In this document: in pieces, positions 20,819-64,000 of the stretch
How the letters are laid out: the number at the start of each line of letters is the position of its first letter
How positions within the stretch are numbered: the first letter of the stretch is position 1
DNA from: a virus
Lineage: Duplodnaviria; Heunggongvirae; Uroviricota; Caudoviricetes
Length of the DNA: 64,000 bases
IMG/VR virus record: IMGVR_UViG_3300028888_000051
Location: 163,384 to 227,383 of that record
Reading direction: 5' to 3' (one strand)
Program-made: the position numbers and the translations under genes
Notes under the pieces: generated by a model
Database searches by the model: none
The model's input: the letters and a program-made list of their open reading frames with translations, nothing else
What the model was told of the DNA's origin: nothing

Positions 20819-21715
20819 ATGTCAAATGAATTAGTATTAAATTCAGAATGGACGCCTTTTTTAATAGAAAACAGAGCTTCTATTACATTTGATAAATTTT
20901 TAGATTTAATTAAACAATTAGATAACAATAGTTCACCAAATTTATGGACAAAATGGAAAAATTATGCTAATCAAGTAGTTATAGAAACACCAAATTACTA
21001 TTTTAAGTTATATGAAGATGATTATTTATGTGGTTCATTTTGGTCATTAATTCGCTCTACTTTAGGAGAGATATATACAAAATATTTTAATATTTTGTGG
21101 GATGTTAATATTATAAAGCAAAATAGTAAAATATATACACTCGAAAGACGTCAAAAATTAAATGTATGTATACCGAATTCAATTTTATATACTGATTTAC
21201 TTCTTAATTGGTCAAATACACTTAAAAAACTAGAAAATGAACTTTTATTATCAGAAATATGTCAACAACTTAAACCATATATTCCAGAATTAGCAGAACT
21301 TAAGTTGATACGTAATTGTATAAATAAATATGCAGATTATGCTATTACTGAAGATAATAATATTGTACTTTTAGATGATTCCGATTGGTTTATAGCTATG
21401 GTTGATAAAAACGGTAAATGGTTAAATTCAAAATTTAAAGGTTATAATATAATTTCTAGTTTAGGAGAAACAATTTTTGCTCCAGAGGGTTATTTTGATA
21501 AAGGAAATATAACTAAACATGAAGAATTTACAAATAAATGGCAAATTTATATGGAAAATATTAAAACTACAGAAATAGAAGGAATTTTATTTGATCAACG
21601 TGAACAAATGCTCAAAGATAATATATCTTTGATATTTAATCAAAAACTTTTGCCTAATCAAAATATAAAATCTTTTGATTCAGTAGGTGATTTACTTAAA
21701 ATTGGTTTTGAATAA
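20819..21715 (+). CDS. hypothetical protein (298 aa from the internal ATG)
   Basis: Track ORF starts at 20789 inside the upstream gene. ATG at 20819 (MSNELVL) follows the upstream stop and is the more likely start. The 3' end overlaps the convergent rSAM gene by 20 nt. Confidence 0.5.
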   Translation: MSNELVLNSEWTPFLIENRASITFDKFLDLIKQLDNNSSPNLWTKWKNYANQVVIETPNYYFKLYEDDYLCGSFWSLIRSTLGEIYTKYFNILWDVNIIKQNSKIYTLERRQKLNVCIPNSILYTDLLLNWSNTLKKLENELLLSEICQQLKPYIPELAELKLIRNCINKYADYAITEDNNIVLLDDSDWFIAMVDKNGKWLNSKFKGYNIISSLGETIFAPEGYFDKGNITKHEEFTNKWQIYMENIKTTEIEGILFDQREQMLKDNISLIFNQKLLPNQNIKSFDSVGDLLKIGFE

Positions 21716-22742
21716 ATTCTCTATCACAGATAACACATTCATCAGAATCTATATAGGCGCAATAATTTAGTTGATGTCCACATTTAGCTGTAAGAAATTC
21801 TAAGCAATTACCTTCTTTTTCATTTAATTCATTTCGTGTATGTTTATTTCTATGATTTAATTGCATACGATGATTATCATCTGATTCATTGAAATTTCTA
21901 TACAAATCATCTGCACGATAAATTATATTAAAAAGTTTATCATATAAACCTGGGCAATCTTCTTTAAATTTAATTAAAAATTTTAAAAAATCTTCTCTTT
22001 TTGGAAAAAAACCCGGTAATCTTTTTTCCATTAATTGTTTAGCTTCCATGTATTGTTCAATTTTTGATAAGTTTTCATGAATAGGTTTAATTCCACCTGG
22101 AGAAGGTTGTTTAAAAAACATAGAAGTATGATATTTATTCATAAAATCATTAAAAGAAAATTCACCATTCAGATATTTGGTAATTATATCTTGAGTTAAA
22201 ATGGTACAAGTGTTAAAATTTAATGTTGGATATTTTTCATGTAAATTTAACATGTTATTTGACCAATTTTCTTGCATTTTTGGTAAATGAAAACGACCGA
22301 TCGTATCATAAGATGTAACAAGCCATACTTGATTTATTAATTCTGGTTTTCCGGCTTGAATATACATTTTTTTCATAATATCCAAAGAAGTATATAAATC
22401 TTTTTGTGAACCTATTGTAAGGGTACACATAATCCATACTTCACGTATTTTACCTGAAATTTGTAATTCTGCAGTTTTTTGCATAAGATTAAAAAATTTA
22501 TTTTTGACTTCATCTACATCAAGTTGACCTTGAAAAAATTCTCCACCTATATAAGATACTGTGTTATATGGAATCATTTTTTTGTTATCAGATAAAAAAT
22601 TATAAGCATCATCAAGTGCCTTAATTTTTAATTCTGTTGGTGTAAAGCTATTACTGTTTGCATTATAACAAAATACACATTTTTGATTACATTGATGCCA
22701 TAATTCAAACTGTAAACTCTTTTTTTCATTTATATCCATCAT
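21696..22742 (-). CDS. radical SAM enzyme, paralogue D (348 aa)
   Basis: CNQKCVFC (CxxxCxxC) at residues 18-25; YIGGEFF; C-terminal CGHQLNYCAYIDSDECVICD. Confidence 0.8.
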   Translation of the reverse strand: MMDINEKKSLQFELWHQCNQKCVFCYNANSNSFTPTELKIKALDDAYNFLSDNKKMIPYNTVSYIGGEFFQGQLDVDEVKNKFFNLMQKTAELQISGKIREVWIMCTLTIGSQKDLYTSLDIMKKMYIQAGKPELINQVWLVTSYDTIGRFHLPKMQENWSNNMLNLHEKYPTLNFNTCTILTQDIITKYLNGEFSFNDFMNKYHTSMFFKQPSPGGIKPIHENLSKIEQYMEAKQLMEKRLPGFFPKREDFLKFLIKFKEDCPGLYDKLFNIIYRADDLYRNFNESDDNHRMQLNHRNKHTRNELNEKEGNCLEFLTAKCGHQLNYCAYIDSDECVICDREFIQNQF

Positions 22743-23659
22743 TAGTCTCCTATCATTTCTAAAAAGTTTTCAACATCACTTCTTGGATGTATGTTAGAAT
22801 CAAAATATCCATAATTGTTTTCATCACAATAGGTATTCTTTTTATTTTCTGAATTATGTCTATCATTCATAATATAAAAATCTTTATCGTCAAATGAAGA
22901 ATAACATGTATCACTATGATTTACAATATTTATAAAATTTTCTAAATCATCTTTTGTAAACATTTTTGTTTCATAAGTATATTGTAAAAATTTAAGAAAG
23001 GTTTCTCTTCTCGGAAAAAAATTAGATAAAATTTTATTTTCGAAATCTTCAACATTTTTACATAGATGACCATAACCAGTCATTGGTAGCATATAATTTG
23101 TAAAGCAATTATAATTTTCATTGAATTCTTTTAAATTTAAACGATTAGACAACACTGCTTCTAACATAGCTTGAGTAACAATCATTTCAACATGAAGTTT
23201 TAAATTTGGATAATTTTTATGTAAAAATAACATATTATTTTGCCAATTTTTTAAAGTGTTATTATTAAATCTACCAATTATATCCCAAGAAGTACAAATC
23301 ATAAATTGATTCTGAAAGTTCTTTATATATTCACAAAATTCTAATAATTCAGAATTATCATCAAACATTAAAGCTGTTGTAATAAGACAGCGTTTAGCTA
23401 TTCCCATTTTAATTTTATTTATAAAACAGTCTATAATTTTATAAAAGTATTTTTTAACTTCAGCTGTATCTATTTCACCATTAAAAAATTCTCCACCGAT
23501 TATACCAAAATCAGAATATTTATCAGCTTCTTTTGTATTAAGAATATCTAAAACTTTTTTCATACATTTAACTTTATCTCTATGTCTAGGTATACCGTTA
23601 TTATAGCAAAATTTACATCCAAATGAACATTGTTTCCATAATTCAAATTGTAAAAACAT
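22742..23659 (-). CDS. radical SAM enzyme, paralogue C (305 aa), C-terminal Cys module degenerate
   Basis: CSFGCKFC; IIGGEFF; C-terminus YCDENNYGYFDSN lacks the EC..CD part. Confidence 0.8.
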   Translation of the reverse strand: MFLQFELWKQCSFGCKFCYNNGIPRHRDKVKCMKKVLDILNTKEADKYSDFGIIGGEFFNGEIDTAEVKKYFYKIIDCFINKIKMGIAKRCLITTALMFDDNSELLEFCEYIKNFQNQFMICTSWDIIGRFNNNTLKNWQNNMLFLHKNYPNLKLHVEMIVTQAMLEAVLSNRLNLKEFNENYNCFTNYMLPMTGYGHLCKNVEDFENKILSNFFPRRETFLKFLQYTYETKMFTKDDLENFINIVNHSDTCYSSFDDKDFYIMNDRHNSENKKNTYCDENNYGYFDSNIHPRSDVENFLEMIGD

Positions 23660-23660
23660 A

Positions 23661-24584
23661 TTACTCTCCTAGTATAAGTAAATCACAAAGCATACATTCA
23701 TCTGAATCTGCATAACATCTATATAATTCACTATGACCACATTCGGTAATATTTTCTTTACCATCAGATAAAATTGGTTGTTGAGTTATATCATTATTTT
23801 TATTACGTAAACCAGTATATTTATAAATCGCCGAAGCGTTAGTTGAACTATACATATTAGTATATATCTGTGGAAAGTTTTCTTTCAAATATATACAAAA
23901 ATTAAGAAAATCTTCACGTTTGAAGAAAAAGTCATTTAATTTAAAACCAGAATGTATTGGATGAGGATATAAAAAACAAAAATTACATCCTTTTAGTTCT
24001 TCTTCTAAAAAATATTTAAAATCAAATTTGTTAGACATAATATCATCAATAAGATATTGAGTTAAAATCATTTGAACTCCAACTGCATAATTATATCTAT
24101 CTCTAAATTTTTTGATATTTTCTAAAGCTAATAATCTTTTTTCTTCTGAAGGATATCTATATTTTATATCATAAGAAAAATTTACATCTATAAATCGCAT
24201 GTCTCCTGTTTTTTCTTTGATTCTGTCTATAACACGAAATAAAAATGCTGGATCATACATTCCATTAGTTACAGTTGAATAGCGACATCTATAAGAAGTA
24301 CTAACTAATAATATTTTATTTATGATGTCATCTATTAAAAGCATAAATTCATCTTGTATATCTTTATCGGTTATAAAATACAATTCACCACCTAAAAGAG
24401 ATATACCATCAGCAAATTTATCTTTCCAATCAATATAATCCAAATTTTTTCTTATTTTATGTATTTCTTCAATAAGTCTAGATTTATCCCAAACTTCACG
24501 ATTTTTTCGTAAACAGAATTTACAGTTATTGTTACAATTTGGCCAAAGTGAATATTGATTCATATAATGTTTAATTTCTAACAT
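23661..24584 (-). CDS. radical SAM enzyme, paralogue B (307 aa)
   Basis: CNNNCKFC; LLGGELY; C-terminal CGHSELYRCYADSDECMLCD. Confidence 0.8.
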   Translation of the reverse strand: MLEIKHYMNQYSLWPNCNNNCKFCLRKNREVWDKSRLIEEIHKIRKNLDYIDWKDKFADGISLLGGELYFITDKDIQDEFMLLIDDIINKILLVSTSYRCRYSTVTNGMYDPAFLFRVIDRIKEKTGDMRFIDVNFSYDIKYRYPSEEKRLLALENIKKFRDRYNYAVGVQMILTQYLIDDIMSNKFDFKYFLEEELKGCNFCFLYPHPIHSGFKLNDFFFKREDFLNFCIYLKENFPQIYTNMYSSTNASAIYKYTGLRNKNNDITQQPILSDGKENITECGHSELYRCYADSDECMLCDLLILGE

Positions 24585-41027: not shown

Positions 41028-42377
41028 TTAAGCTATAATATTATCTGGTCCATTATTAATTGATAAATCATATTTTTGTTTATAAAAAGGACCTACTTTA
41101 TTTAGCATTTTTTTAACCGTAGAGTGAATACTTTCATTTTCTAAATCAATTATGCCTTCAGGAACCTCTTGCTTACCACGAAGTAAAATACGAGCAATAA
41201 GTTGACCTAATTCAAAGCACATAGATTCATCAAAACCCCGAGTTGTAATCGCTGGAGTACCAATTCTAATTGCAGAAGATTCAGATGGTTTAGTATCACC
41301 CGGCATCATGTTTTTATTACAAATAATATGATATGATGTTAATAAGTCTTCAGCCTGTTTACCATTTATACCAGAATTTCTAAGGTCTACTAATACCATA
41401 TGATTTTCTGAGCCATTACTAATGAATCCTATTTTATTTTCTTTATCGAAATCTCTTATACCATTGATAAGTGCTTGCATATTACAATATACTTGTTCTA
41501 TATAATCTTTAAATTCTGGTTTGAGAGCTTCAATAAAACATTGTGCTTTAGCAGCAACAAGTGCTTCATTTGGACCACCTTGAATTTTTGGAAAACACCC
41601 ACTGTTAATTTTACTACAAAGTTTTTGGTCATTCCAAAGAATTATACCACCACGAGGTCCTCTTAAAGTTTTGTGTGTTGTAGAAGTGATCACATCACAC
41701 CATTTAGTTGGATCATATTTATCTTTCCATAAATGAGCAGCAATAAATCCCATTACATGAGCTGAATCAGACATAAGATAACATTTTGTTTCTTCATCCC
41801 TACCAAGATTATATACATCTACCAATTTCCTTATATATTCATAATTAATTCGTTTAGAATAAGCTGAAGCTCCAACAACTAACATTCTTGGATGATATTG
41901 AAGTAATTTTTGTTTAATTTCTTCATAATTCAATTCACCATTTTCATCAAGACCATAATATACAGGATTATATATATGACCTGTTAATGAAGCTTTAGAG
42001 TAGTGTGTCAAATGTCCGCCATATTCTATGCCCATTCCAAGTACTGTATCACCTGGTTTTAAAAGACCTGCATATACAGCTTGATTAGCCTGAGAGCCAG
42101 AATGAGGTTGAACACAAGCAAAATTTACATTAAATAATTCTTTAGCTTTTTCTATAGCATAATTTTCTACTTCATTTATTACTTCACATCCAGCATAATG
42201 ACGTCCCTGTTTAGAAACTTCATTTGGAAATCCTTCTGCATACTTTACAGATAAATGACTTCCCAAAAGATCAAGAATATCTTGACTTGGATAGTTTTCT
42301 GAAGCTATTAATTCAATACCATCATTAAGACGATTTGTCTCTTTGCTTTCTAATTGTTGTAATTTTTGATCAATCAT
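41028..42377 (-). CDS. glyA: serine hydroxymethyltransferase
   Basis: LIASENY, YAEGFP, VQPHSGSQAN, GGHLTH and TTHKTLRGPRGG (PLP-Lys context) are all present in order. Confidence 0.95.
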   Translation of the reverse strand: MIDQKLQQLESKETNRLNDGIELIASENYPSQDILDLLGSHLSVKYAEGFPNEVSKQGRHYAGCEVINEVENYAIEKAKELFNVNFACVQPHSGSQANQAVYAGLLKPGDTVLGMGIEYGGHLTHYSKASLTGHIYNPVYYGLDENGELNYEEIKQKLLQYHPRMLVVGASAYSKRINYEYIRKLVDVYNLGRDEETKCYLMSDSAHVMGFIAAHLWKDKYDPTKWCDVITSTTHKTLRGPRGGIILWNDQKLCSKINSGCFPKIQGGPNEALVAAKAQCFIEALKPEFKDYIEQVYCNMQALINGIRDFDKENKIGFISNGSENHMVLVDLRNSGINGKQAEDLLTSYHIICNKNMMPGDTKPSESSAIRIGTPAITTRGFDESMCFELGQLIARILLRGKQEVPEGIIDLENESIHSTVKKMLNKVGPFYKQKYDLSINNGPDNIIA

Positions 42378-50991: not shown

Positions 50992-51210
50992 ATGTATGAA
51001 AAATTAATAGATCTTAAAGATAATTTTTTATTTTGTATTGCAACTACATTTGTTGGAATTTTAATTATGATAATAGCTAGTGTTATTATAATTATAACAC
51101 TTCCAATGTATTATTTATTTTGGATAAATCCAGTATTTGAAATTTATCAAAATTTAATTTGGAAAATATATGATATATTATTTCAAATTGGATCAGATGA
51201 TGAAATTTAA
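50992..51210 (+). CDS. small membrane protein (72 aa, two hydrophobic segments); holin-like topology
   Basis: FLFCIATTFVGILIMIIASVIIIITLPMYYLFWINPVF; AAAGGAAA RBS. Confidence 0.45.
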   Translation: MYEKLIDLKDNFLFCIATTFVGILIMIIASVIIIITLPMYYLFWINPVFEIYQNLIWKIYDILFQIGSDDEI

Positions 51211-54200
51211 ATTAAGTCTTGCAATTCTTCAGAAGATTGATCTATAAAATTTGAATAATCATTTACTTTTTCTTTTATTTGATTAGAAGAAATATATTCA
51301 TATTGCGGAAAATCTGAATAATTAAGCTGTGCATTATATATAAAACCAACAATTACATCAGCTAAATCTTTTAATTCAGTAGTTCGAGTTACTTTTCCTC
51401 TATCAAAAACAAGAGCCGATAATTCTTTTCTGAGTTTTGGACATATTCCTACTTTTACCTGTCCTAATTCCATTAAAGTAGATGCATTAACATAAGGTTC
51501 AAGTTTTATATCGACTGAAACTTTATTTACTACTTCGAAACATCCCGATTTAGCTAAATTTTGTTGAAAAATTTCTCCATTCCATTGATCGCTTGATACT
51601 GTATGAATTAGCATATTACGTTCAATTACTAAATTTATTAAAAAAGTTTCTATTGCATGTATATCTATTTTATTTCTTGCATTCACAGCTATAAGTAAAT
51701 CAACTACATATATTGTTTCATTTTCTTTTTTATTTTCATTATAACGCCATTCTTTATGACCAATACATATACCAGCATCACATTGTCCAGAATCACCACC
51801 TCCTGCTAAATCTACATGACAATAACGTTTTGCAAAAGGAGCTCTTTTAAATATCCATCTACCATCTGTTAATTGTTCCCATAAATTATATTCATCTAGT
51901 AAAGCTAATATATCATTATTATCACTTATATCAGCTTTAATATTAAATTCTGGAGGCAATTCAGCATCTTCAATTTTTGATATATCTTTAAAGACTGTAC
52001 TGTTATCTACAGTTGTCATTCCTGCAATATCTTGAATAGACTGATCTAATTGTAATTCAAATTTTTCTTTATATACAGTTGGAACATTTATTACTTCACA
52101 TCCAATGGGTGGTATATAATTTCCATCTTCTAAAGCTTTCAATTCACCAGGATCGGTAAATATTTTAGAAGGAATTGAGCCATTACCAACAAGAACAGGA
52201 AATGTAGAGCCATCACCTAAAAACTCAGGATCTTCTTTAACTTCCCAAAGCCGAGGCATAAGAATAAGAATAGATGGATCATTTTTTGGCAATCGACGTA
52301 TGTATTCACCAATAGGACTATTTGTTGTACGAGCTGATGATACAACTGACTGAAATACTAAAGGACTTCCTTGAAAACGTGAACTAAAACGATTATCAAC
52401 TGAATTAAGAAGTGCCAAAGCTTCATCTACACCTTTTTCATTGATCTCATCCATAAAGCTATTTACTATATTCAAACCTATAGTATGAGTTATACCTGAA
52501 CCAGATGTAATAATAATATTGTCTGGAAAATATATCGTGCCTGTCGATTTTTCCACATTAAATGGTATTGGACAATGTGGATCCGATAAATCAAAATTTT
52601 CAAAAGATTGCATTCGCATAACTCTTTGAAAACACGGCATTGTTTCCATAAGTTTAACAAATGGTAATAAATTTGTTTCATAAACTTGTTTTAAAGTCAT
52701 AGAAATAATAACATTTGCTATTGTTGCATCACTATCTATATTAAATACTGCTCTAGGATAACGTAAACATAATATACGATATAAAACATATAAAAAAGCT
52801 TTACGAGCAATTGTTGACTTACCACAATTATGTGCAATTATACCAGCCTTTAAAGCAAAATTATGATTTTTTTCTGTAGTTATATCATAAACTTGTTGTT
52901 TACCTATATATTCTATAGAAATTATTTTATGATTGTATATTTTTTTACGCTTGTAATTTTCTTTAGCCCCTAAAGTAGGATCATACCAAGGCTCTCTTGT
53001 ATGAATAAATGCTAATAATTCAATGTATTTTTGATTTTCTTTTCCATGGAATCTTGCAATAGTAGCTAATACTTGTTTAGCCAATATAATTGCTTTTTCT
53101 TCAGGACTTTTGTTGGCTTTTAAATTACGCATATTTTCAGCCATTTTTTTAGAAATATTTCTAGCCTTTTCTGTTTTATTTCTTTCTATTAAAGTTTTAC
53201 TTGCTCTTTGTCTATATTCTTCACTATGTGGACCATTCCAACCGGCAAGCGAAGCTTTTCTTTGGTGTTCTGAATCTTGATGTAGTTTATTCCATCCAAT
53301 TTTTCTTTTTGCTTCTATCTCTTCATAATCTAAGCGAGCTTTATAGGTAATATGACTTTTTATTCCTTTTTGTCTTCTGTATTCTTTAAATTCATCACCT
53401 CTAATTGAAGCATTATATTCTTTCCATCTTCTACCTCCAACTTTAGCGTGATATTCCCAATGATATTTGTGAGGTATAATAGCTAAATTTTGAGGTCTAT
53501 CATCTAATTTATTAAAATTTTTATGGTGAACAACTTGTCCAGTTTTATATAAAGTTTTCCATTTACCTACTATTTGATATCTTTTTTCCCATTTTTCAGT
53601 AGTATTATTTTTTATTTGAATATATCCTTTATCACTAATTTTTGAATAATAAGGCATCATAGATTCACCAGATTTTAATCCAGTATCTATACTTTTCCAT
53701 TTATTTTTTCTTGTTAAAAATCTATGATCTGATGTACATTTAATTATTTCACCATTGTCTAAAGTTATTTTATACACATCTTTTATACCACTACAAAATA
53801 CATTAATTATCTTATCTGGTTCCCAAGTTTTATTAAATGTATTAAATGATAATACCCATTCATTATTATAATTATTAAGTAATTCATAAATTGTTTTATT
53901 ACCATTTAAAGTAGCTACTATCGTATCACCGGTTAAGCAACCAATACTTCCACCAAATATAGTTTTTCTTACTGGTGAGCCTTCCCTAAACATATATTCA
54001 AGTTGTTGTCGCCAATAAGGATATAATGTAGCATTACTATTATACATATAAAATTTACCAGATAAAAATTCTTCAATATTAGGCATAGGTCGTCTATATA
54101 AAAGATTATCAATTTGATCTGTTAAATCAGAATCCTGATTTGTTAATGTCAAATATAAAGCAATACGTTTTTGTATTTCTTGTTGCTTTTTAAATTCATC

Positions 54201-54344
54201 TGGCATATAATGCTCTTCATAATATGCTAAAATGTCTATAAAATCTTGTGACATAATAACATTTTGAAGTTCATTTGCATTATTAAATGAAACTATTGGA
54301 AGATTTTCTAATTTTTTTGCAATATCAGTAGGAAGTTGTTCCAT
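51207..54344 (-). CDS. terL: terminase large subunit, interrupted by an intein in the Walker A motif
   Basis: The exteins join to FGGSIG|CGKST (P-loop). Walker B-like SFMDEINE. Nuclease-domain pattern CHVDLAGGGD...DAGICIGH. Confidence 0.85.
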   Translation of the reverse strand: MEQLPTDIAKKLENLPIVSFNNANELQNVIMSQDFIDILAYYEEHYMPDEFKKQQEIQKRIALYLTLTNQDSDLTDQIDNLLYRRPMPNIEEFLSGKFYMYNSNATLYPYWRQQLEYMFREGSPVRKTIFGGSIGCLTGDTIVATLNGNKTIYELLNNYNNEWVLSFNTFNKTWEPDKIINVFCSGIKDVYKITLDNGEIIKCTSDHRFLTRKNKWKSIDTGLKSGESMMPYYSKISDKGYIQIKNNTTEKWEKRYQIVGKWKTLYKTGQVVHHKNFNKLDDRPQNLAIIPHKYHWEYHAKVGGRRWKEYNASIRGDEFKEYRRQKGIKSHITYKARLDYEEIEAKRKIGWNKLHQDSEHQRKASLAGWNGPHSEEYRQRASKTLIERNKTEKARNISKKMAENMRNLKANKSPEEKAIILAKQVLATIARFHGKENQKYIELLAFIHTREPWYDPTLGAKENYKRKKIYNHKIISIEYIGKQQVYDITTEKNHNFALKAGIIAHNCGKSTIARKAFLYVLYRILCLRYPRAVFNIDSDATIANVIISMTLKQVYETNLLPFVKLMETMPCFQRVMRMQSFENFDLSDPHCPIPFNVEKSTGTIYFPDNIIITSGSGITHTIGLNIVNSFMDEINEKGVDEALALLNSVDNRFSSRFQGSPLVFQSVVSSARTTNSPIGEYIRRLPKNDPSILILMPRLWEVKEDPEFLGDGSTFPVLVGNGSIPSKIFTDPGELKALEDGNYIPPIGCEVINVPTVYKEKFELQLDQSIQDIAGMTTVDNSTVFKDISKIEDAELPPEFNIKADISDNNDILALLDEYNLWEQLTDGRWIFKRAPFAKRYCHVDLAGGGDSGQCDAGICIGHKEWRYNENKKENETIYVVDLLIAVNARNKIDIHAIETFLINLVIERNMLIHTVSSDQWNGEIFQQNLAKSGCFEVVNKVSVDIKLEPYVNASTLMELGQVKVGICPKLRKELSALVFDRGKVTRTTELKDLADVIVGFIYNAQLNYSDFPQYEYISSNQIKEKVNDYSNFIDQSSEELQDLI
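52827..53939 (-). mobile_element. class-1 intein (371 aa) with HNH endonuclease domain
   Basis: Starts CLTGDTIV; block B CTSDHRF; HNH core VVHHKNFNKLDDRPQNLAIIPHKYHWEYH; ends VYDITTEKNHNFALKAGIIAHN followed by the +1 Cys. Coordinates derived from residues 136-506 of the track ORF. Confidence 0.8.
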
Positions 54345-55145: not shown

Positions 55146-55149
55146 TTAC

Positions 55150-55161
55150 GGTTTTACATTT
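55150..55161 (+). repeat. GGTTTTACATTT direct repeat, left copy
   Basis: Identical 12-mer at 57170..57181; a related CTTTTACATTTT at 55090..55101. Confidence 0.6.
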
Positions 55162-55170
55162 TTTATATTT

Positions 55171-55189
55171 AGTTCTATTATATATAAAG
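55171..55189 (+). promoter_or_regulatory. AGTTCTATTATATATAAAG box upstream of the homing-endonuclease-like gene
   Basis: About 40 nt upstream of ATG 55218. Confidence 0.4.
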
Positions 55190-55217
55190 TTTAAATTAAT
55201 ATTGATAAAGTGAGAAT

Positions 55218-57167
55218 ATGAAAAATATTTGTAAAAATTGCGGCAAAGAATATGAATTTGAACCAAAGCATGGAACCTATAAATTTAAGTATTGTTCTCA
55301 AGAATGTAAACATGCCTTTGCGAAAAAAGATGAAGAACCACAATATAGGATTTGTGAATATTGTGGTAAAGAATATTGGTGGAGTAATTCGTTTAAAAAT
55401 TATAAAGAATATGTACATATAGATACAAAACGTTTTTGTTCTGCTGAGTGTAGTAAAAATTATAAAAAAGAAAAAATTAAACAAACATGTTTAAAAAAAT
55501 ATGGTGTTGAATATATTTCACAAACTGCAGATGTTAAAGAAAAAATGAAAAATGCATGGAAAAATAAATCAGAAAAAGAATTAAAATTGCGTCAAGAAAG
55601 TAGAAAGCAAACTAATTTAAAAAAATATGGTGTTGAACATGTATCTAAATTATCTGAAATTAAAGAAAAAGTAAAGCAAACAAATTTAAAAAAATTTGGT
55701 GCTGAATTTTATACACAAACAGATGAATATAAAGAAAAATATAAACAAACCAATCTTAAAAAGTATGGTGTAGAGCATTGTTCACAAGTACCAAAAATAG
55801 CAGAAAAAATAAAAAATAGTCTATTAAATAAATCTAAAGAAGAATGGGTTAAAATTATAGATAAGAGAAAGCATACTAATTTAGAGAAGTATGGTACAGA
55901 AAGTGCTTCTCAGAATAATGATATAAAACAAAAAGTAAAACAAACTAATTTAAAAAAATTTGGAAACGAAATAGCAATTCAATCAGATATTATACAATCT
56001 AAAATTAAACAAAATAATCTTGAAAAATATGGTGTAAAATATAGTATAGCATCTAATGAAGTACAAGAAAAAATTCGTACTACAAATTTGAAAAGATATA
56101 ATTATGAATATCCATTTCAATCTGAAGAATTAAGAAAAATTATGGAAGAAAATAGAAAAAAGACGAATCTTAAAAAATATGGTACAGAAAACATTAGTCA
56201 AGTTAAAGAATTTAAAGAAAAAGCAAAAAATACATGTTTGAAGAAATATGGTGTACCATATAATTGTATGACTGAAAATTGTTTAGAAGTAGGACATAGT
56301 ACTATATCTAAAATAAATTTGGCTTTTAAAAATAAATTAGATAAATTAAATATTCAAAATAAACTAGAATTTCATATTGATAAATGGAGTTATGATTTTT
56401 TATGTAATGATAAGTTTTTAATTGAAATTAATCCTAGCTATACACATAATTCATCTAATACTAAAAAACGATTGGAATTTATGAAGCCAAAAGATAAATA
56501 CTATCATTTTAACAAAACTAAATTAGCTTATGAAAATGGTTATCAGTGTATTCATATATGGGATTGGGATGATAAAGAAAAAATTTTAAATATACTTGTT
56601 GATAAAAAGAAAATATATGCTAGAAAATTAATATTAAAAAATGTATCAAATGAAGAATGTAATGAGTTTTTAAATTCATATCATTTACAAAATACATGTA
56701 AAGGACAAACTATTAGATTAGGTTTATATAAAGATAATGAATTGATACAATTAATGACATTTGGAAAAGCGAGATATACAAAAAATTATGAATATGAATT
56801 ATTAAGATTATGTACAAAAGCAGAATATAAAGTTATCGGAGGAGCAGAAAAATTATTTAAACATTTTTTAATTATATATAATCCAAAATCTATAATTTCT
56901 TATTGTGATAATTCAAAATTTTCAGGAGAAGTATACAAAAGATTAAATATGAATTTGAAAGATTATGGAACACCAAGAAAGCATTGGTATCATATAGAAA
57001 AAAATAAACATATTACAGAAGCACTTTTACTTCAAAGAGGTTATTCACAATTACACGGTGATAAAGAACATATAAAAGGTGAAAATAATGAAAAACTGAT
57101 GTTAGAAGCAGGATATGTAGAAATATATGATTCTGGTCAAAGTACATATGTTTGGCATAAAAACTAA
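55218..57167 (+). CDS. free-standing homing-endonuclease-like protein (649 aa): two Zn ribbons, ten tandem repeats, nuclease-like core, C-terminal domain
   Basis: CKNCG..CSQEC and CEYCG..CSAEC. Ten copies of K.TNLKKYG.E..SQ...(I/V)KEK.KQ. YDFLCNDKFLIEINPSYTHN resembles the DUF559/Vsr-like PD-(D/E)xK core. ARKL..KNVS..E...FL..YHLQ tail. Confidence 0.55.
   Translation: MKNICKNCGKEYEFEPKHGTYKFKYCSQECKHAFAKKDEEPQYRICEYCGKEYWWSNSFKNYKEYVHIDTKRFCSAECSKNYKKEKIKQTCLKKYGVEYISQTADVKEKMKNAWKNKSEKELKLRQESRKQTNLKKYGVEHVSKLSEIKEKVKQTNLKKFGAEFYTQTDEYKEKYKQTNLKKYGVEHCSQVPKIAEKIKNSLLNKSKEEWVKIIDKRKHTNLEKYGTESASQNNDIKQKVKQTNLKKFGNEIAIQSDIIQSKIKQNNLEKYGVKYSIASNEVQEKIRTTNLKRYNYEYPFQSEELRKIMEENRKKTNLKKYGTENISQVKEFKEKAKNTCLKKYGVPYNCMTENCLEVGHSTISKINLAFKNKLDKLNIQNKLEFHIDKWSYDFLCNDKFLIEINPSYTHNSSNTKKRLEFMKPKDKYYHFNKTKLAYENGYQCIHIWDWDDKEKILNILVDKKKIYARKLILKNVSNEECNEFLNSYHLQNTCKGQTIRLGLYKDNELIQLMTFGKARYTKNYEYELLRLCTKAEYKVIGGAEKLFKHFLIIYNPKSIISYCDNSKFSGEVYKRLNMNLKDYGTPRKHWYHIEKNKHITEALLLQRGYSQLHGDKEHIKGENNEKLMLEAGYVEIYDSGQSTYVWHKN
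55476..56282 (+). repeat. ten tandem coding repeats of about 23-43 codons inside 55218..57167
   Basis: Repeat cores TCLKKYGVEY, TNLKKYGVEH, TNLKKFGAEF, TNLKKYGVEH, TNLEKYGTES, TNLKKFGNEI, NNLEKYGVKY, TNLKRYNYEY, TNLKKYGTEN, TCLKKYGVPY. Confidence 0.8.
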
Positions 57168-57169
57168 AA

Positions 57170-57190
57170 GGTTTTACATTTCTATATAAA
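57170..57190 (+). promoter_or_regulatory. GGTTTTACATTT right repeat copy fused to a TTCTATATAAA box upstream of 57233..57601
   Basis: 12-mer identical to 55150..55161; the box is about 45 nt from ATG 57233. Confidence 0.45.
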
Positions 57191-57232
57191 TGATATATAT
57201 TTAATTAAGTATTAAATAGTGGCAAATATAAT

Positions 57233-57601
57233 ATGAATAGAATATATAATCTTGTACGTGATGATTTTAATTTAAATGATAGTAGTATTTTGTGTAGGCA
57301 AAGTACTTTATTTTGTATCTTAGAAGAAATAGCTACTAATGATTATTTTTCTGCTAAAGAATTTTTTATTAAACCTCAGGATGGTTATTATGGAAGTCGT
57401 GTCACATTAAGAAGAGAATCATGGGGTTATAAAATAGCAATAAAGCATAGTACTTTACCAGAAGATCCAACACAAACGTATAGACTTTATATGACTAGAA
57501 AAGAAATCGTAGAATTATATACATATTTTAAGTTATTTAATTTAAAAGTTATTAATCTTATTAATCATATTCATATTAATACTAGAGAGGCATATTTTTA
57601 A
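57233..57601 (+). CDS. hypothetical protein (122 aa)
   Basis: ORF following the promoter-like box; 1-nt overlap with the next gene. Confidence 0.5.
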   Translation: MNRIYNLVRDDFNLNDSSILCRQSTLFCILEEIATNDYFSAKEFFIKPQDGYYGSRVTLRRESWGYKIAIKHSTLPEDPTQTYRLYMTRKEIVELYTYFKLFNLKVINLINHIHINTREAYF

Positions 57602-59231: not shown

Positions 59232-60326
59232 ATGGCTAAAAAAATAGAAAAAAAAGTTCAAAAGGAAAATTCTCGTGTAACTTCAGCATTATCATTACTT
59301 CGTAAAAAATTTGGTGATGATGCAGCAATGACTTTTAATGACATAGGTGTTACAAAAGTAGATGTAATTCCTTCTGGTTCTTTAAAATTAGACAAGATAT
59401 TAGGAATTGGTGGATGGCCACGTGGCAGAGTTACGCTTTTATGGGGTGATTATAGTTCTGGTAAATCAACGATATGTTTACAAGCCGTAGCTAATGCACA
59501 AAAAGAAAATTTAGTTTGTGCTTATGTTGATATGGAACATGCTTTAGATCCTATTTATGCTGAAGCACTAGGTTGTGATATGTCTGAATTAATTTTACTT
59601 CAACCAGATGGTGGTGAACAAGCACTAGAAGCTATTAAATTATTAGCACAAGAAAAAGCAGCTGATTTAATTATTCTTGATTCAATTGTTGCATGTGTAC
59701 CAGCAAGTGAATTAGATGGTGAATTATCTGATATGAATATTGGACGTCAAGCAAAGTTATTTAGTTCATTTTTTAAACAAGTTACTCCAGCACTTGAAAT
59801 AGCAAATTGTGCTTTAATTTGTACAAATCAAGTTCGCCAAGCTCCAGGTAAATATGGAGATGCATCTGTTTTACCTTGTGGAGAAGCTCAAAAATTCTTT
59901 GCTTCTATTATTTGCCGTACTCGTAGACAACAATCTCAAAAAGAAGAAAGTAAAGAAGGTGATATTATTGCAAATCAAATTAGTGTAACTACAGAAAAGA
60001 ATAAATTGGCCCCTCCATTCAGAAAAGCAGAATTAATGATTTATTATGGTAAAGGTTTTTCAGCAGATAATGAAATGTTAGATTTAGCTGTAGAATTTGG
60101 TATATTAACAAAAGCTGGAGCATTTTATAAATATAAAGGAGAAACTATTGGACAAGGATCTGCTAAAACTAAAATTTGGTTAGAAGAACATAAAGATATT
60201 AAAAATAATATAATGGAACAAGTTAAAGAAATTCTTATGAAGCCTAATAATGAAAAAATGATTTTAGAAAAAGAAGCAGAGTCAGAGTTAAATTATGATC
60301 CGGATACAGGTGAAATAATAGAATAA
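59232..60326 (+). CDS. recA: RecA recombinase (bacterial type)
   Basis: IPSGSLKLDKILGIGGWPRGRVTLLWGDYSSGKSTICLQ, AYVDMEHALDPIYAEALG, LIILDSIVA and CTNQVRQ are collinear with bacterial RecA. Confidence 0.9.
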   Translation: MAKKIEKKVQKENSRVTSALSLLRKKFGDDAAMTFNDIGVTKVDVIPSGSLKLDKILGIGGWPRGRVTLLWGDYSSGKSTICLQAVANAQKENLVCAYVDMEHALDPIYAEALGCDMSELILLQPDGGEQALEAIKLLAQEKAADLIILDSIVACVPASELDGELSDMNIGRQAKLFSSFFKQVTPALEIANCALICTNQVRQAPGKYGDASVLPCGEAQKFFASIICRTRRQQSQKEESKEGDIIANQISVTTEKNKLAPPFRKAELMIYYGKGFSADNEMLDLAVEFGILTKAGAFYKYKGETIGQGSAKTKIWLEEHKDIKNNIMEQVKEILMKPNNEKMILEKEAESELNYDPDTGEIIE

Positions 60327-60707: not shown

Positions 60708-60965
60708 ATGACAGAACAAGTAGATGTTGAAGTCGGTGGTTTAAATACTGAAAGATTAAAATCTATTATTGAACGTATAGAAAATGTAGATAATGAGATT
60801 AATGCATTAAAAGAAGATAGAAAAGGTATAATGCTTGAAGCAAAATCTGCAGGTTTTGATACAAAAGCTATTACCCATGTTATTAAACAAAGAAAAAAGA
60901 ATAAAGCACAGCGAGATGAAGAGGAATTAGTTTTCGAAACCTATGAAAGAGCTGTTGGTTTATAA
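60708..60965 (+). CDS. gapR: GapR-like (DUF2312/UPF0335) DNA-binding protein
   Basis: LKSIIERIENVDNEINALKEDRKGIMLEAKSAGFDTKAITHVIKQRKKNKAQRDEEELVFETYERAVG is collinear with Caulobacter GapR as I recall it. Confidence 0.75.
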   Translation: MTEQVDVEVGGLNTERLKSIIERIENVDNEINALKEDRKGIMLEAKSAGFDTKAITHVIKQRKKNKAQRDEEELVFETYERAVGL

Positions 60966-60976
60966 TACATTATAAA

Positions 60977-61030
60977 TGGAAAAATAATTTAAATAATTTA
61001 GTAGAATCCATATAAAGTATGGATTCTATT
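60977..61030 (+). promoter_or_regulatory. TGGAAAAATAATT ... hairpin ... TTCTATTTTTATATTTA element upstream of polB
   Basis: Shares an 18-nt string with 59151..59168. The TTCTA box forms the 3' arm of the hairpin at 61002..61028. Confidence 0.4.
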
Positions 61031-61034: not shown

Positions 61035-61059
61035 TATTTAAGTTAAAGGAGTCAATTTA

Positions 61060-64000
61060 ATGGAAAATATTATAAAGAATAGAAGTAAAGATGAATATAT
61101 TTGTACACTTGGTCCAAAATTATTATTAATTGCACTTAAACCTTTAGATAATGATAAAAAAGAAATATTTGATTCAATACAAGGTATTGAATATTTGAGT
61201 AATTGTTTCAAAAGTAAGTTTAAATCCGCAGAAACTCATGTTACATATTTATTAGATACTGATTCTAATTCTAATTTATTTCAAAATGGTTTTTATGATA
61301 TATTCAATTATTACAATAAAAAAGGTACTTTTGATCCTAAACAATTTATGATAGGATTTATAGGTCAAAAGTCTTTTGATGAATTCAAATATAAGTCTGA
61401 CTCCCTTGTATTTGATGGGGTATATAGTGTAGGGCTTCGTGAAATTACTTCAAGCATAAGAATTTATATATCTGGAATTAATGGAAATAAAGATTTTTAT
61501 GCTCCCTACATTATATTACCTGATGTAACTGAAGATTTTTCTAAAACTAATGTTTTATTAGATAATACAAAAATAGCCCAATCTATAACTACTTCACCAT
61601 ATAGTACAACAAAAGAAGTAATTGATCATTTTAAATTATTAATTGAAAAATATAATGCAGGTGATATAAAAGGGTTTAGATTTAATTCAAAAATAAATTT
61701 TGATTTACCTAAACCGAAAACCGAATATTTCAAAGTATATGATTATGGTACAACACATGAATTAGTTTATTGTCCTTCTGATATTATTTGTGAAAATGAT
61801 ACTTTAGAATTAAAAAATGAATTTAAAAAAAGTTTAATTGAATTATTTAAAACTGTACCAATTTGTGGAGATGATATAGAAAAAACACTTAGTTTATATA
61901 AATTTCCTGGACATGAACAAATAAAAATTGTTGAAGAAAAAGATATTATTCCTGATCCATATGAAATTATATTAGATAGACCTTATTTTAAAATCGTAGG
62001 AAGCAGAAATGGTACTCCTTCTAATTGGTATACTAAATGGAGAAATGAAGTATTCTATGGCTTAAATTTAGACAAAAAAACAATAAAGCGCGAAGGATAT
62101 GACGATAGTTTAAAATATGAATGGATTTATGATATAGAGGTTTTTAAAAATGATTGGCTGTTTGTTGCAAAATCAATAGATGGCGAAAGTAAAGTTGTTT
62201 GCTGGAATGATCCTATAAATTTAGCTAAATGGATTAAAAATAAAATTTTGATTGGTTTTAATAATGCTGGATATGATGATGCTGTTATTCATCATGCATT
62301 AGTTTATCCATATGCTGTAAAGGGTGCTTTAACAGTTAAAGAATTTTCTGATTTAATGATTTATGATGAATTAGATAATGTAAAAAGACGTCCTGAAATA
62401 AGAGAAGAATTTAAAAATCAAAGATTAGTTTTTGATCCTCCATTTTTGTCATGGGATTTAAGTTTTCATATGCCATTTGATATTAGACGTAATTCATTAA
62501 AAAAACTTACAATGTCTATACTCAATAAACGGAATTATGATTCAAATGTACCATTTGATACTCCTAGACCACTAACTAAAGAAGAGCGTAAAGAAGTAGA
62601 AAAGTATTGCGAAATGGACGTTGATAACACTCGTGATTTATTTTTACCAGATCCAGAAGATGTTAAGAAAAAAGAAGAAAATCCAAAATATAAAATGAGA
62701 GAATTTGCAAGAGATTCTTATGATATTAAATGGAATTTGATTGTTGAATATAAAATGACTGCAAAAACTCTTATTACAAAATCTTCATCTTTTGCTGGAA
62801 AAGTGTTATGTGGAGAAGACGCTAAACCAAATCTTCAAAATACCTTTAAGCTAGTAGATGGCAAAAGACAATATTATCTTATTCCAGAAATGGCATATAA
62901 AGAATTAGAAGGAACACCTGTTTTAAATTTTTATATTAAACATCAAAGTAATCCAGATTATATAAAAGAAAAATTTGAATATTATATGGGAGGAAATGAT
63001 GAAAGTCATAAATATCAATTTGGTTTTGGTGGACTTCATCAAGCTTTAGTTAATTTTGGATCTACTAATCTTTGTAATTTTGATGTAGCTAGCTTATATC
63101 CATCATTACTTATTCAATATAATCTAATGTCACGAGGTGCAGAAAAAAATCCAGATTCTTATAAAGAAGTGTATCATACACGTATAGCAGCTAAACATGA
63201 AGGTAAAACATTATTAAATCTTGGTTTAAAATTAGTATTAAATGGTGCTATAGGAGCAATGTTAAGTAACTATAATCCATTATATGATACTTGGTCTAAT
63301 TCGAGCATTTGTGTACATGGACAATTACTTTTATTTATTCTTTGCAAGCGTCTTTATGAAGCAGGATTTAATATTGTTCAAACTAATACAGATGGTATTA
63401 TGGTAGAGCGTAGAGAAGATATAGACTTTATGCCAATTTGTAAAAAATGGGAAGAAGAAACAAGACTTGTTCTCGAATATGATGACATTGCGATTTTACA
63501 ACAAAATAATGTTAACAACTATTATTGTCAATTTACAAATGGAAAGGTTAAGTCTAAAGGTTTTTATTTATCAAATGAAAAATATGGTAAAGCAACAAGT
63601 ATTATTCTTTGTAATATGGTAACAGGTAAACCATTATTAGAAGGAACAGAACCTAGAGACTATGTAATTTATAAACGTCATAGTATTGGTGAAATTTATG
63701 ATGGAAAAACTAATCAAAAATTAGAAGGTCGTAGTTTAGCATTTGTTGTTGGTTATCCAGAAGATTCTAGAACACAATCTTATTATAGTCGTAGTCGTAA
63801 TGAAAGAGAAGTAGTTAAAAAAGATGAAAATGGAAAAGCTATAGTAGATGAAAATGGAAATAATGTAATGGAAACAATAAATAGTATTTCTAAAATTAAT
63901 GGTTTTACTGAACATATGCTTTTGGTAGATGATACAAATACATTAACTTTTGATGAAATTAACACAAAAGAATATATAAATTTTGCTAAAAACTTACTTG
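61060..64000 (+). CDS. polB: family-B DNA polymerase with a roughly 345-aa extra N-terminal region (3'-truncated by the window edge; absent from the ORF track)
   Basis: Hand translation from ATG 61060 (RBS AAAGGAG) stays open to 64000. ExoI YDIEVF (codons 357-362), ExoII GFNNAGYDD, ExoIII YCEMDVDNT, motif A DVASLYPS, motif B KLVLNGAIGAM, motif C QTNTDGIMV. Confidence 0.85.
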   Translation, partial: MENIIKNRSKDEYICTLGPKLLLIALKPLDNDKKEIFDSIQGIEYLSNCFKSKFKSAETHVTYLLDTDSNSNLFQNGFYDIFNYYNKKGTFDPKQFMIGFIGQKSFDEFKYKSDSLVFDGVYSVGLREITSSIRIYISGINGNKDFYAPYIILPDVTEDFSKTNVLLDNTKIAQSITTSPYSTTKEVIDHFKLLIEKYNAGDIKGFRFNSKINFDLPKPKTEYFKVYDYGTTHELVYCPSDIICENDTLELKNEFKKSLIELFKTVPICGDDIEKTLSLYKFPGHEQIKIVEEKDIIPDPYEIILDRPYFKIVGSRNGTPSNWYTKWRNEVFYGLNLDKKTIKREGYDDSLKYEWIYDIEVFKNDWLFVAKSIDGESKVVCWNDPINLAKWIKNKILIGFNNAGYDDAVIHHALVYPYAVKGALTVKEFSDLMIYDELDNVKRRPEIREEFKNQRLVFDPPFLSWDLSFHMPFDIRRNSLKKLTMSILNKRNYDSNVPFDTPRPLTKEERKEVEKYCEMDVDNTRDLFLPDPEDVKKKEENPKYKMREFARDSYDIKWNLIVEYKMTAKTLITKSSSFAGKVLCGEDAKPNLQNTFKLVDGKRQYYLIPEMAYKELEGTPVLNFYIKHQSNPDYIKEKFEYYMGGNDESHKYQFGFGGLHQALVNFGSTNLCNFDVASLYPSLLIQYNLMSRGAEKNPDSYKEVYHTRIAAKHEGKTLLNLGLKLVLNGAIGAMLSNYNPLYDTWSNSSICVHGQLLLFILCKRLYEAGFNIVQTNTDGIMVERREDIDFMPICKKWEEETRLVLEYDDIAILQQNNVNNYYCQFTNGKVKSKGFYLSNEKYGKATSIILCNMVTGKPLLEGTEPRDYVIYKRHSIGEIYDGKTNQKLEGRSLAFVVGYPEDSRTQSYYSRSRNEREVVKKDENGKAIVDENGNNVMETINSISKINGFTEHMLLVDDTNTLTFDEINTKEYINFAKNLL

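Follow-up and report, generated by a model that had tools for sequence, protein, structure and literature searches.

Background

A 64,000-nucleotide stretch of DNA from a tailed virus (Caudoviricetes; IMG/VR record IMGVR_UViG_3300028888_000051, positions 163,384 to 227,383), which as a whole is called the window here, ends inside a gene for a family-B DNA polymerase (PolB) that carries about 345 residues ahead of its exonuclease. A preliminary description, made from the letters alone, had pointed to this extension and had seen no recognisable motif in it, which raises the question what the extension is, where it came from and what a polymerase might use it for.

We found the extension to be a genuine part of the protein, kept by purifying selection. 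Very probably it is made up of a domain resembling uracil-DNA glycosylase (UDG) and a truncated exonuclease, both derived from a family-A polymerase (PolA) and both apparently stripped of catalytic residues, and the complete protein is then a four-module chain of inactive UDG, inactive exonuclease, PolB and archaeo-eukaryotic primase (AEP). Within the literature searched this chimeric replicase is previously undescribed, and it seems to be the fossil of an exchange of polymerase families inside a gene.

The N-terminal module is shared with family-A polymerases

When an N-terminal profile was searched with hmmsearch against 1.84 billion representative proteins, it recovered its own family, mostly as fragments, and a single outsider, P0131 (E 9.5e-44); no free-standing copy of the module was present among these representatives, only fragments. 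P0131 and its relatives are family-A polymerases with the Pfam domains DNA_pol_A_exo1 (PF01612) and DNA_pol_A (PF00476), and tblastn with another of them, P0151, matched 2,444 phage records, the top matches listed being annotated as DNA polymerase or DNA polymerase I. By BLASTP, residues 8-266 of the window protein align with residues 17-282 of P0131 (29% identity, E 1e-23), an alignment that spans the UDG-like domain and reaches the first strands of the exonuclease; there FRFNSKIN stands opposite the active AFDIETN of P0131. With hhalign, full-length P0151 gave a probability of 98.1% (E 1e-13). A Foldseek search of viral structure models likewise matched the extension to UDG-fused family-A polymerases over about 290-320 columns (best E 1.9e-9). 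Taken together, fold matches and homology divide the extension into a UDG-like domain (residues ~10-175), an exonuclease-like half-domain (~180-300) and a linker, which in one chain gives a UDG domain and, directly after it, a DEDDy (PF01612-type) exonuclease.

The UDG catalytic residues are already gone in PolAs of the P0131/P0151 type, and the exonuclease that follows, with its motifs FDIET, NIKFD and YSAMD and its PF01612 match, is to judge by sequence the active proofreader of the polymerase itself. Neither active carboxylates in this exonuclease nor family-A palm and fingers behind it are found in the window protein; since PolB and not PolA follows the module, the protein stands outside the PolA family and the N-terminal module alone derives from one. 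The motifs FDS, KSKxK, T-H and IPY are common to the PolB-fusion family and the PolA relatives and might belong to a conserved DNA-contact surface. At two loci (L002, 10001-13962; L003, 7378-11339) the PolA is encoded by two genes, one of 803 aa for the N-terminal part and one of 516 aa with DNA_pol_A and an intein-like segment; this split form accounts for most members of the related UDG-PolA family, P0151 and P0154 being unsplit forms of 1150-1153 aa.

The two kinds of polymerase also occupy the same genomic slot. In the window and in its relative, locus L001, the order of genes is RecA, a protein of 117-122 aa, GapR, the PolB fusion and, further on, a 170-aa protein, a DNMK-like gene and a ThyA-like gene; in the PolA phage locus L004 it is RecA, 93 aa, GapR, 89 aa, FEN and UDG-PolA, followed with gaps by a 162-aa protein and by DNMK, NUDIX and ThyA-like genes. 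The arrangement RecA-x-GapR-polymerase is thus kept in both lineages, and the genes shared by L001 and L004 are collinear and 24-44% identical (tblastn). Further window genes with homologues at PolA loci are SbcC, SbcD, serine hydroxymethyltransferase (SHMT) and two unknowns.

The explanation that we favour, and consider fairly likely, is that PolA was replaced by PolB in situ while the old N-terminal module was kept. A UDG-fused PolA would formerly have sat at this locus, the UDG-like and exonuclease-like modules being its remains; recombination inside the gene would have replaced the exonuclease/polymerase part with an incoming PolB, leaving the N-terminal module in frame, and the AEP primase would have arrived with or after PolB. 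The direction from PolA to PolB is suggested by the remnant exonuclease, because it is of the PolA type and is dead only where PolB brings a proofreader of its own.

That one module is common to two unrelated polymerase families could also be read as modular shuffling, in which a mobile adaptor of dead UDG and exonuclease was fused independently to PolA and PolB and its exonuclease decayed only beside the PolB proofreader. UDG domains have indeed joined PolAs repeatedly, in N4-like, SPO1-like and SP15-like clusters, the last with a type IV or type II UDG. However, the exonuclease after the UDG of the PolA relatives is no separate adaptor, the searched representatives hold no stand-alone module, and the locus is collinear in both lineages, as in-situ replacement predicts (PMC11348598). 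We therefore regard shuffling as unlikely.

Both N-terminal domains appear to have lost catalysis

Sequence searches left the extension as blank as the preliminary description had found it. Pfam gave no family for the whole ORF (open reading frame) or for full-length homologues at E up to 10, PHROGs gave nothing for residues 1-345, a PDB sequence-profile search with the N-terminal alignment returned one chance match (bromoperoxidase, E 2.3), and tblastn against 50,697 phage records had no match, so that no isolated phage among them has the module. A Pfam scan of 46 member N-termini at E up to 10 produced scattered single chance matches and no UDG (PF03167), the control being SPO1 gp31, which matched PF03167 at 2.4e-22 and in which Pfam places UDG at residues 18-163 and the PolA exonuclease at 235-389. 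An hhalign comparison of the N-terminal profile with the SPO1 gp31 N-terminus was likewise not significant (E 0.35), and the tie to the canonical UDG-PolAs is therefore by fold only; at the level of sequence the module appears homologous only to the metagenomic P0131/P0151 PolA family.

An AlphaFold2 model of residues 1-351 (pLDDT 90.7, pTM 0.80) bore out an early suggestion that a UDG-like fold be looked for: residues ~10-175 are predicted to adopt the alpha/beta/alpha UDG fold. To locate the catalytic positions we relied on topology, on placement after beta-1 for motif A, and on the SPO1 gp31 sequence for comparison; losses were counted over 124 family members. In motif A, where SPO1 has IIIVQENPF and the window LLLIALKPL, the catalytic Glu position is Leu26 and the column reads E50/L37/D19/K11/N5 across the family; in motif B (SPO1 FFPMIHPN, window APYIILPD) the His position is Leu153 in all 124 members, followed by Pro154 in 123. 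With neither the motif-A Glu nor the motif-B His of UDG family 4 in place, the modelled domain looks to have lost the glycosylase catalytic residues.

One could nevertheless suppose that the domain still works as a glycosylase, or actively reads uracil or 5-hydroxymethyluracil (5hmU), and that it scans the template ahead of PolB as in the SP15-like UDG-PolAs. Its fold and its place in the domain order match those of active UDG-PolAs, about 40% of the members have Glu at the motif-A position, P28 is nearly invariant, and the phage has SHMT and L001 ThyA-like and DNMK-like genes, as in phages that modify thymine. The complete loss of the motif-B His, a motif-A position that is Leu in the window and variable in the family, and the lack of any Pfam UDG match all speak against such activity, and fused UDGs that are inactive have a precedent in the N4-like polymerases. 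An active glycosylase or reader thus seems very unlikely here.

The second domain matches a PolA/RNase-D-type 3'-5' exonuclease in which the ExoI signature DxE (DLE in SPO1) has become N209-S-K211, the Asp being replaced by Asn and the Glu by Lys; the latter position is Lys in 113 of 124 members. Its ExoII equivalent has no Asp and ExoIII is absent. Judged on the model, this looks like a truncated family-A (DEDDy) exonuclease that has lost its metal-binding carboxylates and is catalytically dead. Between it and ExoI of PolB lies a linker with the motif S-x-W-Y-x-K-W, invariant in 124 members; neither the PolA relatives nor the other PolBs of the clade have anything equivalent.

The extension is under purifying selection

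Among 5.8 billion proteins searched there are more than 120 homologue clusters (at 90% identity) which are 53-92% identical to the query and cover 99-100% of it, N-terminus included, and conservation of the N-terminus starts at residue 8. Nearly all homologues are 1204-1280 aa long, and more than 120 independent assemblies have the polymerase in one ORF. In a comparison with the syntenic locus L001, which is 82% identical in nucleotides, the ratio of nonsynonymous to synonymous substitution (dN/dS) is 0.10 for residues 1-350, with 0.14 for the UDG-like part (1-175), 0.084 for the exonuclease-like remnant (176-300) and 0.037 for the linker (301-350), compared to 0.036 for the PolB part. These values, together with conservation from residue 8 on, exclude an internal start as well as a decaying leader.

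The loss of catalytic residues from both N-terminal domains, the truncation of the exonuclease and the faster divergence of the N-terminus (30-58% identity, against 53-92% for the whole protein) might suggest a relic without function, in decay since the swap. Such decay is hard to bring together with a dN/dS of 0.10, with full length and absence of stop codons in more than 120 diverged members, with many invariant residues of which some are common to the PolA relatives, and with a fold predicted at high confidence, and we hold it to be highly improbable.

PolB core and C-terminal primase

The assignment to family B made in the preliminary description is upheld by the phrog_1252 profile ('DNA polymerase', E 8.1e-91), which residues 354-980 match at profile positions 54-648 of 663, so that at the window edge the polymerase domain lacks roughly the last 15 positions of the profile. 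Pfam DNA_pol_B did not match, and a PDB profile search with the full-length alignment gave only a weak match to E. coli Pol II (E 1.1e-3). By tblastn, PolBs with about 25-30% identity are present in crAss-like phages, Leuconostoc Limdunavirus, Edwardsiella MSW-3 and staphylococcal phages, and by its sequence the core belongs to this crAss-like/phrog_1252 clade, which was represented in a five-member alignment by this ORF, crAss-like cr131_1, Leuconostoc LN03, Edwardsiella MSW-3 and Staphylococcus phiST9-C.

The motifs quoted in the preliminary description lie where it had placed them, and the whole set reads ExoI IYDIEVF with D358 and E360 (YDIE, residues 357-360), ExoII GFNNAGYDD (399-407, NN..YD at 401-406), ExoIII YCEMDVDNT (516-524, Y516 and D520), a canonical motif A DVASLYPSLL (675-684), motif B KLVLNGAIGAM (724-734) and motif C IVQTNTDGIM (772-781). 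The exonuclease carboxylates of ExoI, ExoII and ExoIII are invariant in 22 family members and the four clade relatives. Motif B keeps K and N and has Ile for Tyr at residue 731 (nt 63250-63252), invariant in the 22 family members and Thr in cr131_1. In motif C, TNTDG (775-779) has Asn for the first Asp; it is read as the preliminary description gave it but is not peculiar to this ORF, for NTDG is invariant in 5/5 aligned clade members, the crAss-like group is known for a markedly divergent motif C, and high activity is on record for PolBs that lack the first Asp, namely piPolB (Kazlauskas et al., PMC7544198); TNTDG is thus a trait of the clade. The exonuclease and polymerase of the PolB core look active as far as their residues tell.

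Full-length homologues extend about 250 aa past the PolB core. There FECD (E57, D59), SGxxSYH (S83, G84, H89) and D120, which correspond to AEP motifs I, II and III, are invariant in 30 members, as is RxP..N..T, and the region is assigned the AEP catalytic fold. The profile matches to known primases are weak: phrog_2597 primase (E 5.7e-5), and PDB chains of CAPP Prim-Pol and PrimPol AEPs (CAPP E 0.03) in which motifs II and III align. The invariant motifs and these matches together identify the C-terminal region as an AEP primase that looks active from its sequence. By tblastn against the 50,697 phage records it has one weak match, an AEP-MCM protein in Bacillus phage phBC6A51 (E 0.01). Directly upstream of its PolB, Leuconostoc phage LN03 carries prim-pol as a gene of its own. 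AEP and PolB may therefore have been partners already in the ancestor of the clade and have become fused in this family; an hhalign comparison of the C-terminal profile with the LN03 prim-pol was not significant.

This primase bears on the preliminary suggestion of a terminal-protein-interaction fold. Since the PolB clade is without the canonical N-domain, as are enzymes of the phi29 type, the extension might be thought to dock a terminal protein for protein-primed initiation. The fused AEP, with its catalytic motifs intact, favours nucleic-acid priming instead; moreover, the fold matches of the extension (UDG and DEDDy exonuclease) include nothing related to terminal proteins, and the genomes are about 250 kb long. 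We give a docking module scarcely any credit.

Start and size of the extension

The ORF was missing from the program-made list because it runs past the window edge; from ATG 61060 (frame 1) it stays open to that edge for 980 codons, as described earlier, and complete homologues, which supply the rest, have lengths of 1213-1280 aa. An in-frame TAA at 61039-61041, 18 nt before the ATG, is followed by no other start codon, and a ribosome-binding site fits the ATG. The clade relatives start 6-50 residues before ExoI and have no N-domain, nor does a canonical PolB N-terminal domain precede the exonuclease here. They are the proper comparators, where the preliminary description had used T4/RB69 gp43 and arrived at about 240 additional residues; against its own clade, the extension measures some 310-345 aa. 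The idea that it is an ordinary PolB N-domain, the product of a wrongly chosen start or a mis-joined gene, found no support and is refuted by the start signals, by the single ORF in all those assemblies and by a fold that is UDG plus DEDDy exonuclease, and its probability is practically nil.

Proposed origin and role of the module

In-situ polymerase swapping is documented in Caudoviricetes (PMC11348598), including Crassvirales, with PolA or PolB in the same gene neighbourhood, as is the case here. Those swaps are whole-gene replacements, the only form in which they are known in tailed phages, whereas here a part of the old gene appears to be kept as an in-frame N-terminal module. Its survival would suggest that recombination took place within the polymerase gene, and it supplies a marker by which the event can be dated. 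The words 'UDG', 'uracil', 'fusion' and 'fused' do not occur in the text of PMC11348598, and nothing on a UDG-PolB fusion was found in the literature searched.

As to function, the AEP domain would lay primers that PolB would elongate and proofread. The dead UDG-like module would have a non-catalytic task, most likely to hold the single-stranded 5' template, or guide it, in front of the active site and to stabilise the enzyme on DNA. Such a DNA-handling role, proposed by analogy, is possible rather than probable. It leans on cryo-EM of SP15-like UDG-PolAs, where the 5' template strand is bound by the UDG domain at the site known from the mpox holoenzyme (bioRxiv 10.1101/2025.03.26.645540), on the poxvirus PolB holoenzyme, in which a UDG subunit does this work in trans, and on the N4-like PolA, whose inactive UDG has been proposed to be a processivity module (PMC10201439).

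Several points weigh against the swap and the role that we propose. The PolA-bearing phages are only distant relatives, as the 24-44% identity of the shared genes tells, so that the swap must be old and its direction is one we infer, and no intermediate was found between the PolA and PolB-fusion lineages. The folds are predictions, those of the extension from a model of residues 1-351. The UDG assignment comes from fold only (Pfam UDG in 0 of 46 members, no significant hhalign match to SPO1), the catalytic positions were assigned by eye and from topology, and the exonuclease-like assignment of residues 180-300 spans only about half of a DnaQ fold. Finally, the Glu retained at the motif-A position in about 40% of the members and the invariant polar residues D32, S39, T59 and H60 make another activity or a ligand pocket possible.

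The combination of modules sets the protein apart from each known system that it resembles. The UDG-fused PolAs (N4-like cluster #17, SPO1-like, and SP15-like YerA41 and phiLo; PMC10201439; bioRxiv 10.1101/2025.03.26.645540; PDB 9qhs, 9qlh) have the same N-terminal order of UDG and DEDDy exonuclease with the same folds, and those of the N4-like cluster have lost the UDG catalytic residues as well; unlike them, the window protein has a family-B polymerase, a family-A exonuclease that is inactivated and truncated, a second, PolB-type exonuclease with the residues of an active enzyme, and a C-terminal AEP. The crAss-like/phrog_1252 PolBs share the NTDG motif C, a DVASxYPS motif A, the lack of a canonical N-domain and a core that is about 25-30% identical, but at about 580-705 aa they have neither the UDG-like and exonuclease-like extension nor the fused primase, both of which are present here. 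HelPrimPolB (PMC7544198) likewise joins a divergent PolB to an AEP/PrimPol in one chain; its helicase and PrimPol are N-terminal, whereas here the AEP is C-terminal, no helicase domain is present and the N-terminus is UDG-like and exonuclease-like. In the poxvirus PolB holoenzyme (E9-A20-D4, or F8-A22-E4 in mpox; PDB 8q3r) the UDG forms an active subunit of its own, with A20 as the bridge, in contrast to a UDG-like domain that here lies in cis, looks inactive and appears to come from a phage PolA.

Perhaps, then, the module is a template-handling or processivity adaptor that serves before PolA or PolB alike, the gene being a record of an intragenic swap from family A to family B, and a UDG fold on the 5' template path may be a general solution, in cis in phages and in trans in poxviruses; it might even sense uracil or 5hmU without cutting. 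This generalisation we put forward tentatively. If correct, non-cutting sensing would replace the uracil-reading N-domain of archaeal PolBs, which this clade lacks. A non-catalytic UDG-fold module that is apparently transferable from PolA to PolB while under strong purifying selection would support a structural role of polymerase-linked UDGs in template handling or processivity, and not only one in repair, and would link the phage UDG-PolAs with the PolB-UDG holoenzyme of poxviruses. A single 1234-aa chain with a primase, a proofreading PolB and a possible DNA-holding domain is moreover a candidate self-priming replicase for amplification chemistry.

Source phage and neighbouring genes

The window has a G+C content of about 26% and a tRNA scan of it found none. 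Members of the polymerase family lie on contigs of up to about 250 kb, some of them deposited as 'Bacilli bacterium' contigs of metagenome-assembled genomes from rumen and gut samples, and the ORF is best explained as the gene for the DNA polymerase that replicates an AT-rich jumbo phage of about 245-250 kb from rumen/gut metagenomes. In 'Bacilli bacterium' assemblies that serve as GTDB species representatives, the family is encoded on contigs of 245-249 kb (JAZNQD010000009.1, 249 kb; JAFZWP010000001.1, 245 kb), which probably are complete jumbo-phage genomes binned as bacteria. The sole named public record seen for the family, MBO4622265.1, is a 'hypothetical protein', and the family has no Pfam domain. 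The features of the locus are collected in Table 1; the terminator-like hairpin is one site, compared to 0.1 expected in shuffled sequence.

Table 1. Coordinates of the polymerase ORF, its domains and associated features in the window
Feature	Position (nt)	Strand	Remarks
Polymerase ORF, first 980 codons	61060..64000	+	Reaches window edge; complete homologues ~1234 aa
UDG-like domain, family-4-like fold, predicted non-catalytic	61087..61584	+	aa ~10-175; motif-A equivalent IALKPL aa 24-29; motif-B equivalent YIILPD aa 150-155
Truncated PolA/RNase-D-type 3'-5' exonuclease-like remnant	61597..61959	+	aa ~180-300; ExoI equivalent GFRFNSKIN; ExoII equivalent VPICGDDIE; no ExoIII
Linker	61960..62109	+	aa 301-350; pLDDT 62-79; dN/dS 0.037
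Invariant S321-x-W-Y-x-K-W327 motif in linker	62020..62040	+	aa 321-327
PolB proofreading exonuclease domain	62110..62739	+	aa ~351-560; ExoI 62125-62145, ExoII 62254-62280, ExoIII 62605-62631
PolB polymerase domain	62740..63999	+	aa ~561-980; motif A 63082-63111, B 63229-63261, C 63373-63402
Ribosome-binding site AAGGAG	61046..61051	+	8 nt before ATG 61060; direct sequence reading
Terminator-like hairpin and T-run, closing the upstream GapR-like gene	61000..61030	+	14-bp stem
GapR-like DNA-binding protein	60708-60965	+	Pfam E 2.1e-23
RecA	59232-60326	+	E 3.7e-77
SHMT	41028-42377	-	

Downstream of the polymerase, L001 encodes a DNMK-like kinase, a ThyA-like enzyme and NrdG/NrdD (16480-17271, 21278-22153 and 23085-23705), to which the PolA-type relatives add dCMP deaminase, ThyX and NUDIX. 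This gene set, SHMT included, resembles those of the thymidine-hypermodifying phages SPO1 and YerA41.

Two further features concern mobile elements. The large terminase subunit of the window (51207-54344, minus strand) contains an intein of about 363 aa that includes an HNH endonuclease (Pfam Intein_splicing, E 1.7e-22). In L001 the terminase is intein-less (674 aa), BLASTP aligns only residues 1-144 and 508-1045, and nt 52825-53939 have no counterpart in L001. A 649-aa ORF resembling DUF7487 proteins and homing endonucleases (55218-57167, plus strand; phrog_3339, E 2.5e-88) lies in a segment, 55148-57595, that has no nucleotide match to the otherwise collinear L001 and appears to be a mobile element that was inserted between the gene for the tail tube and those for replication.

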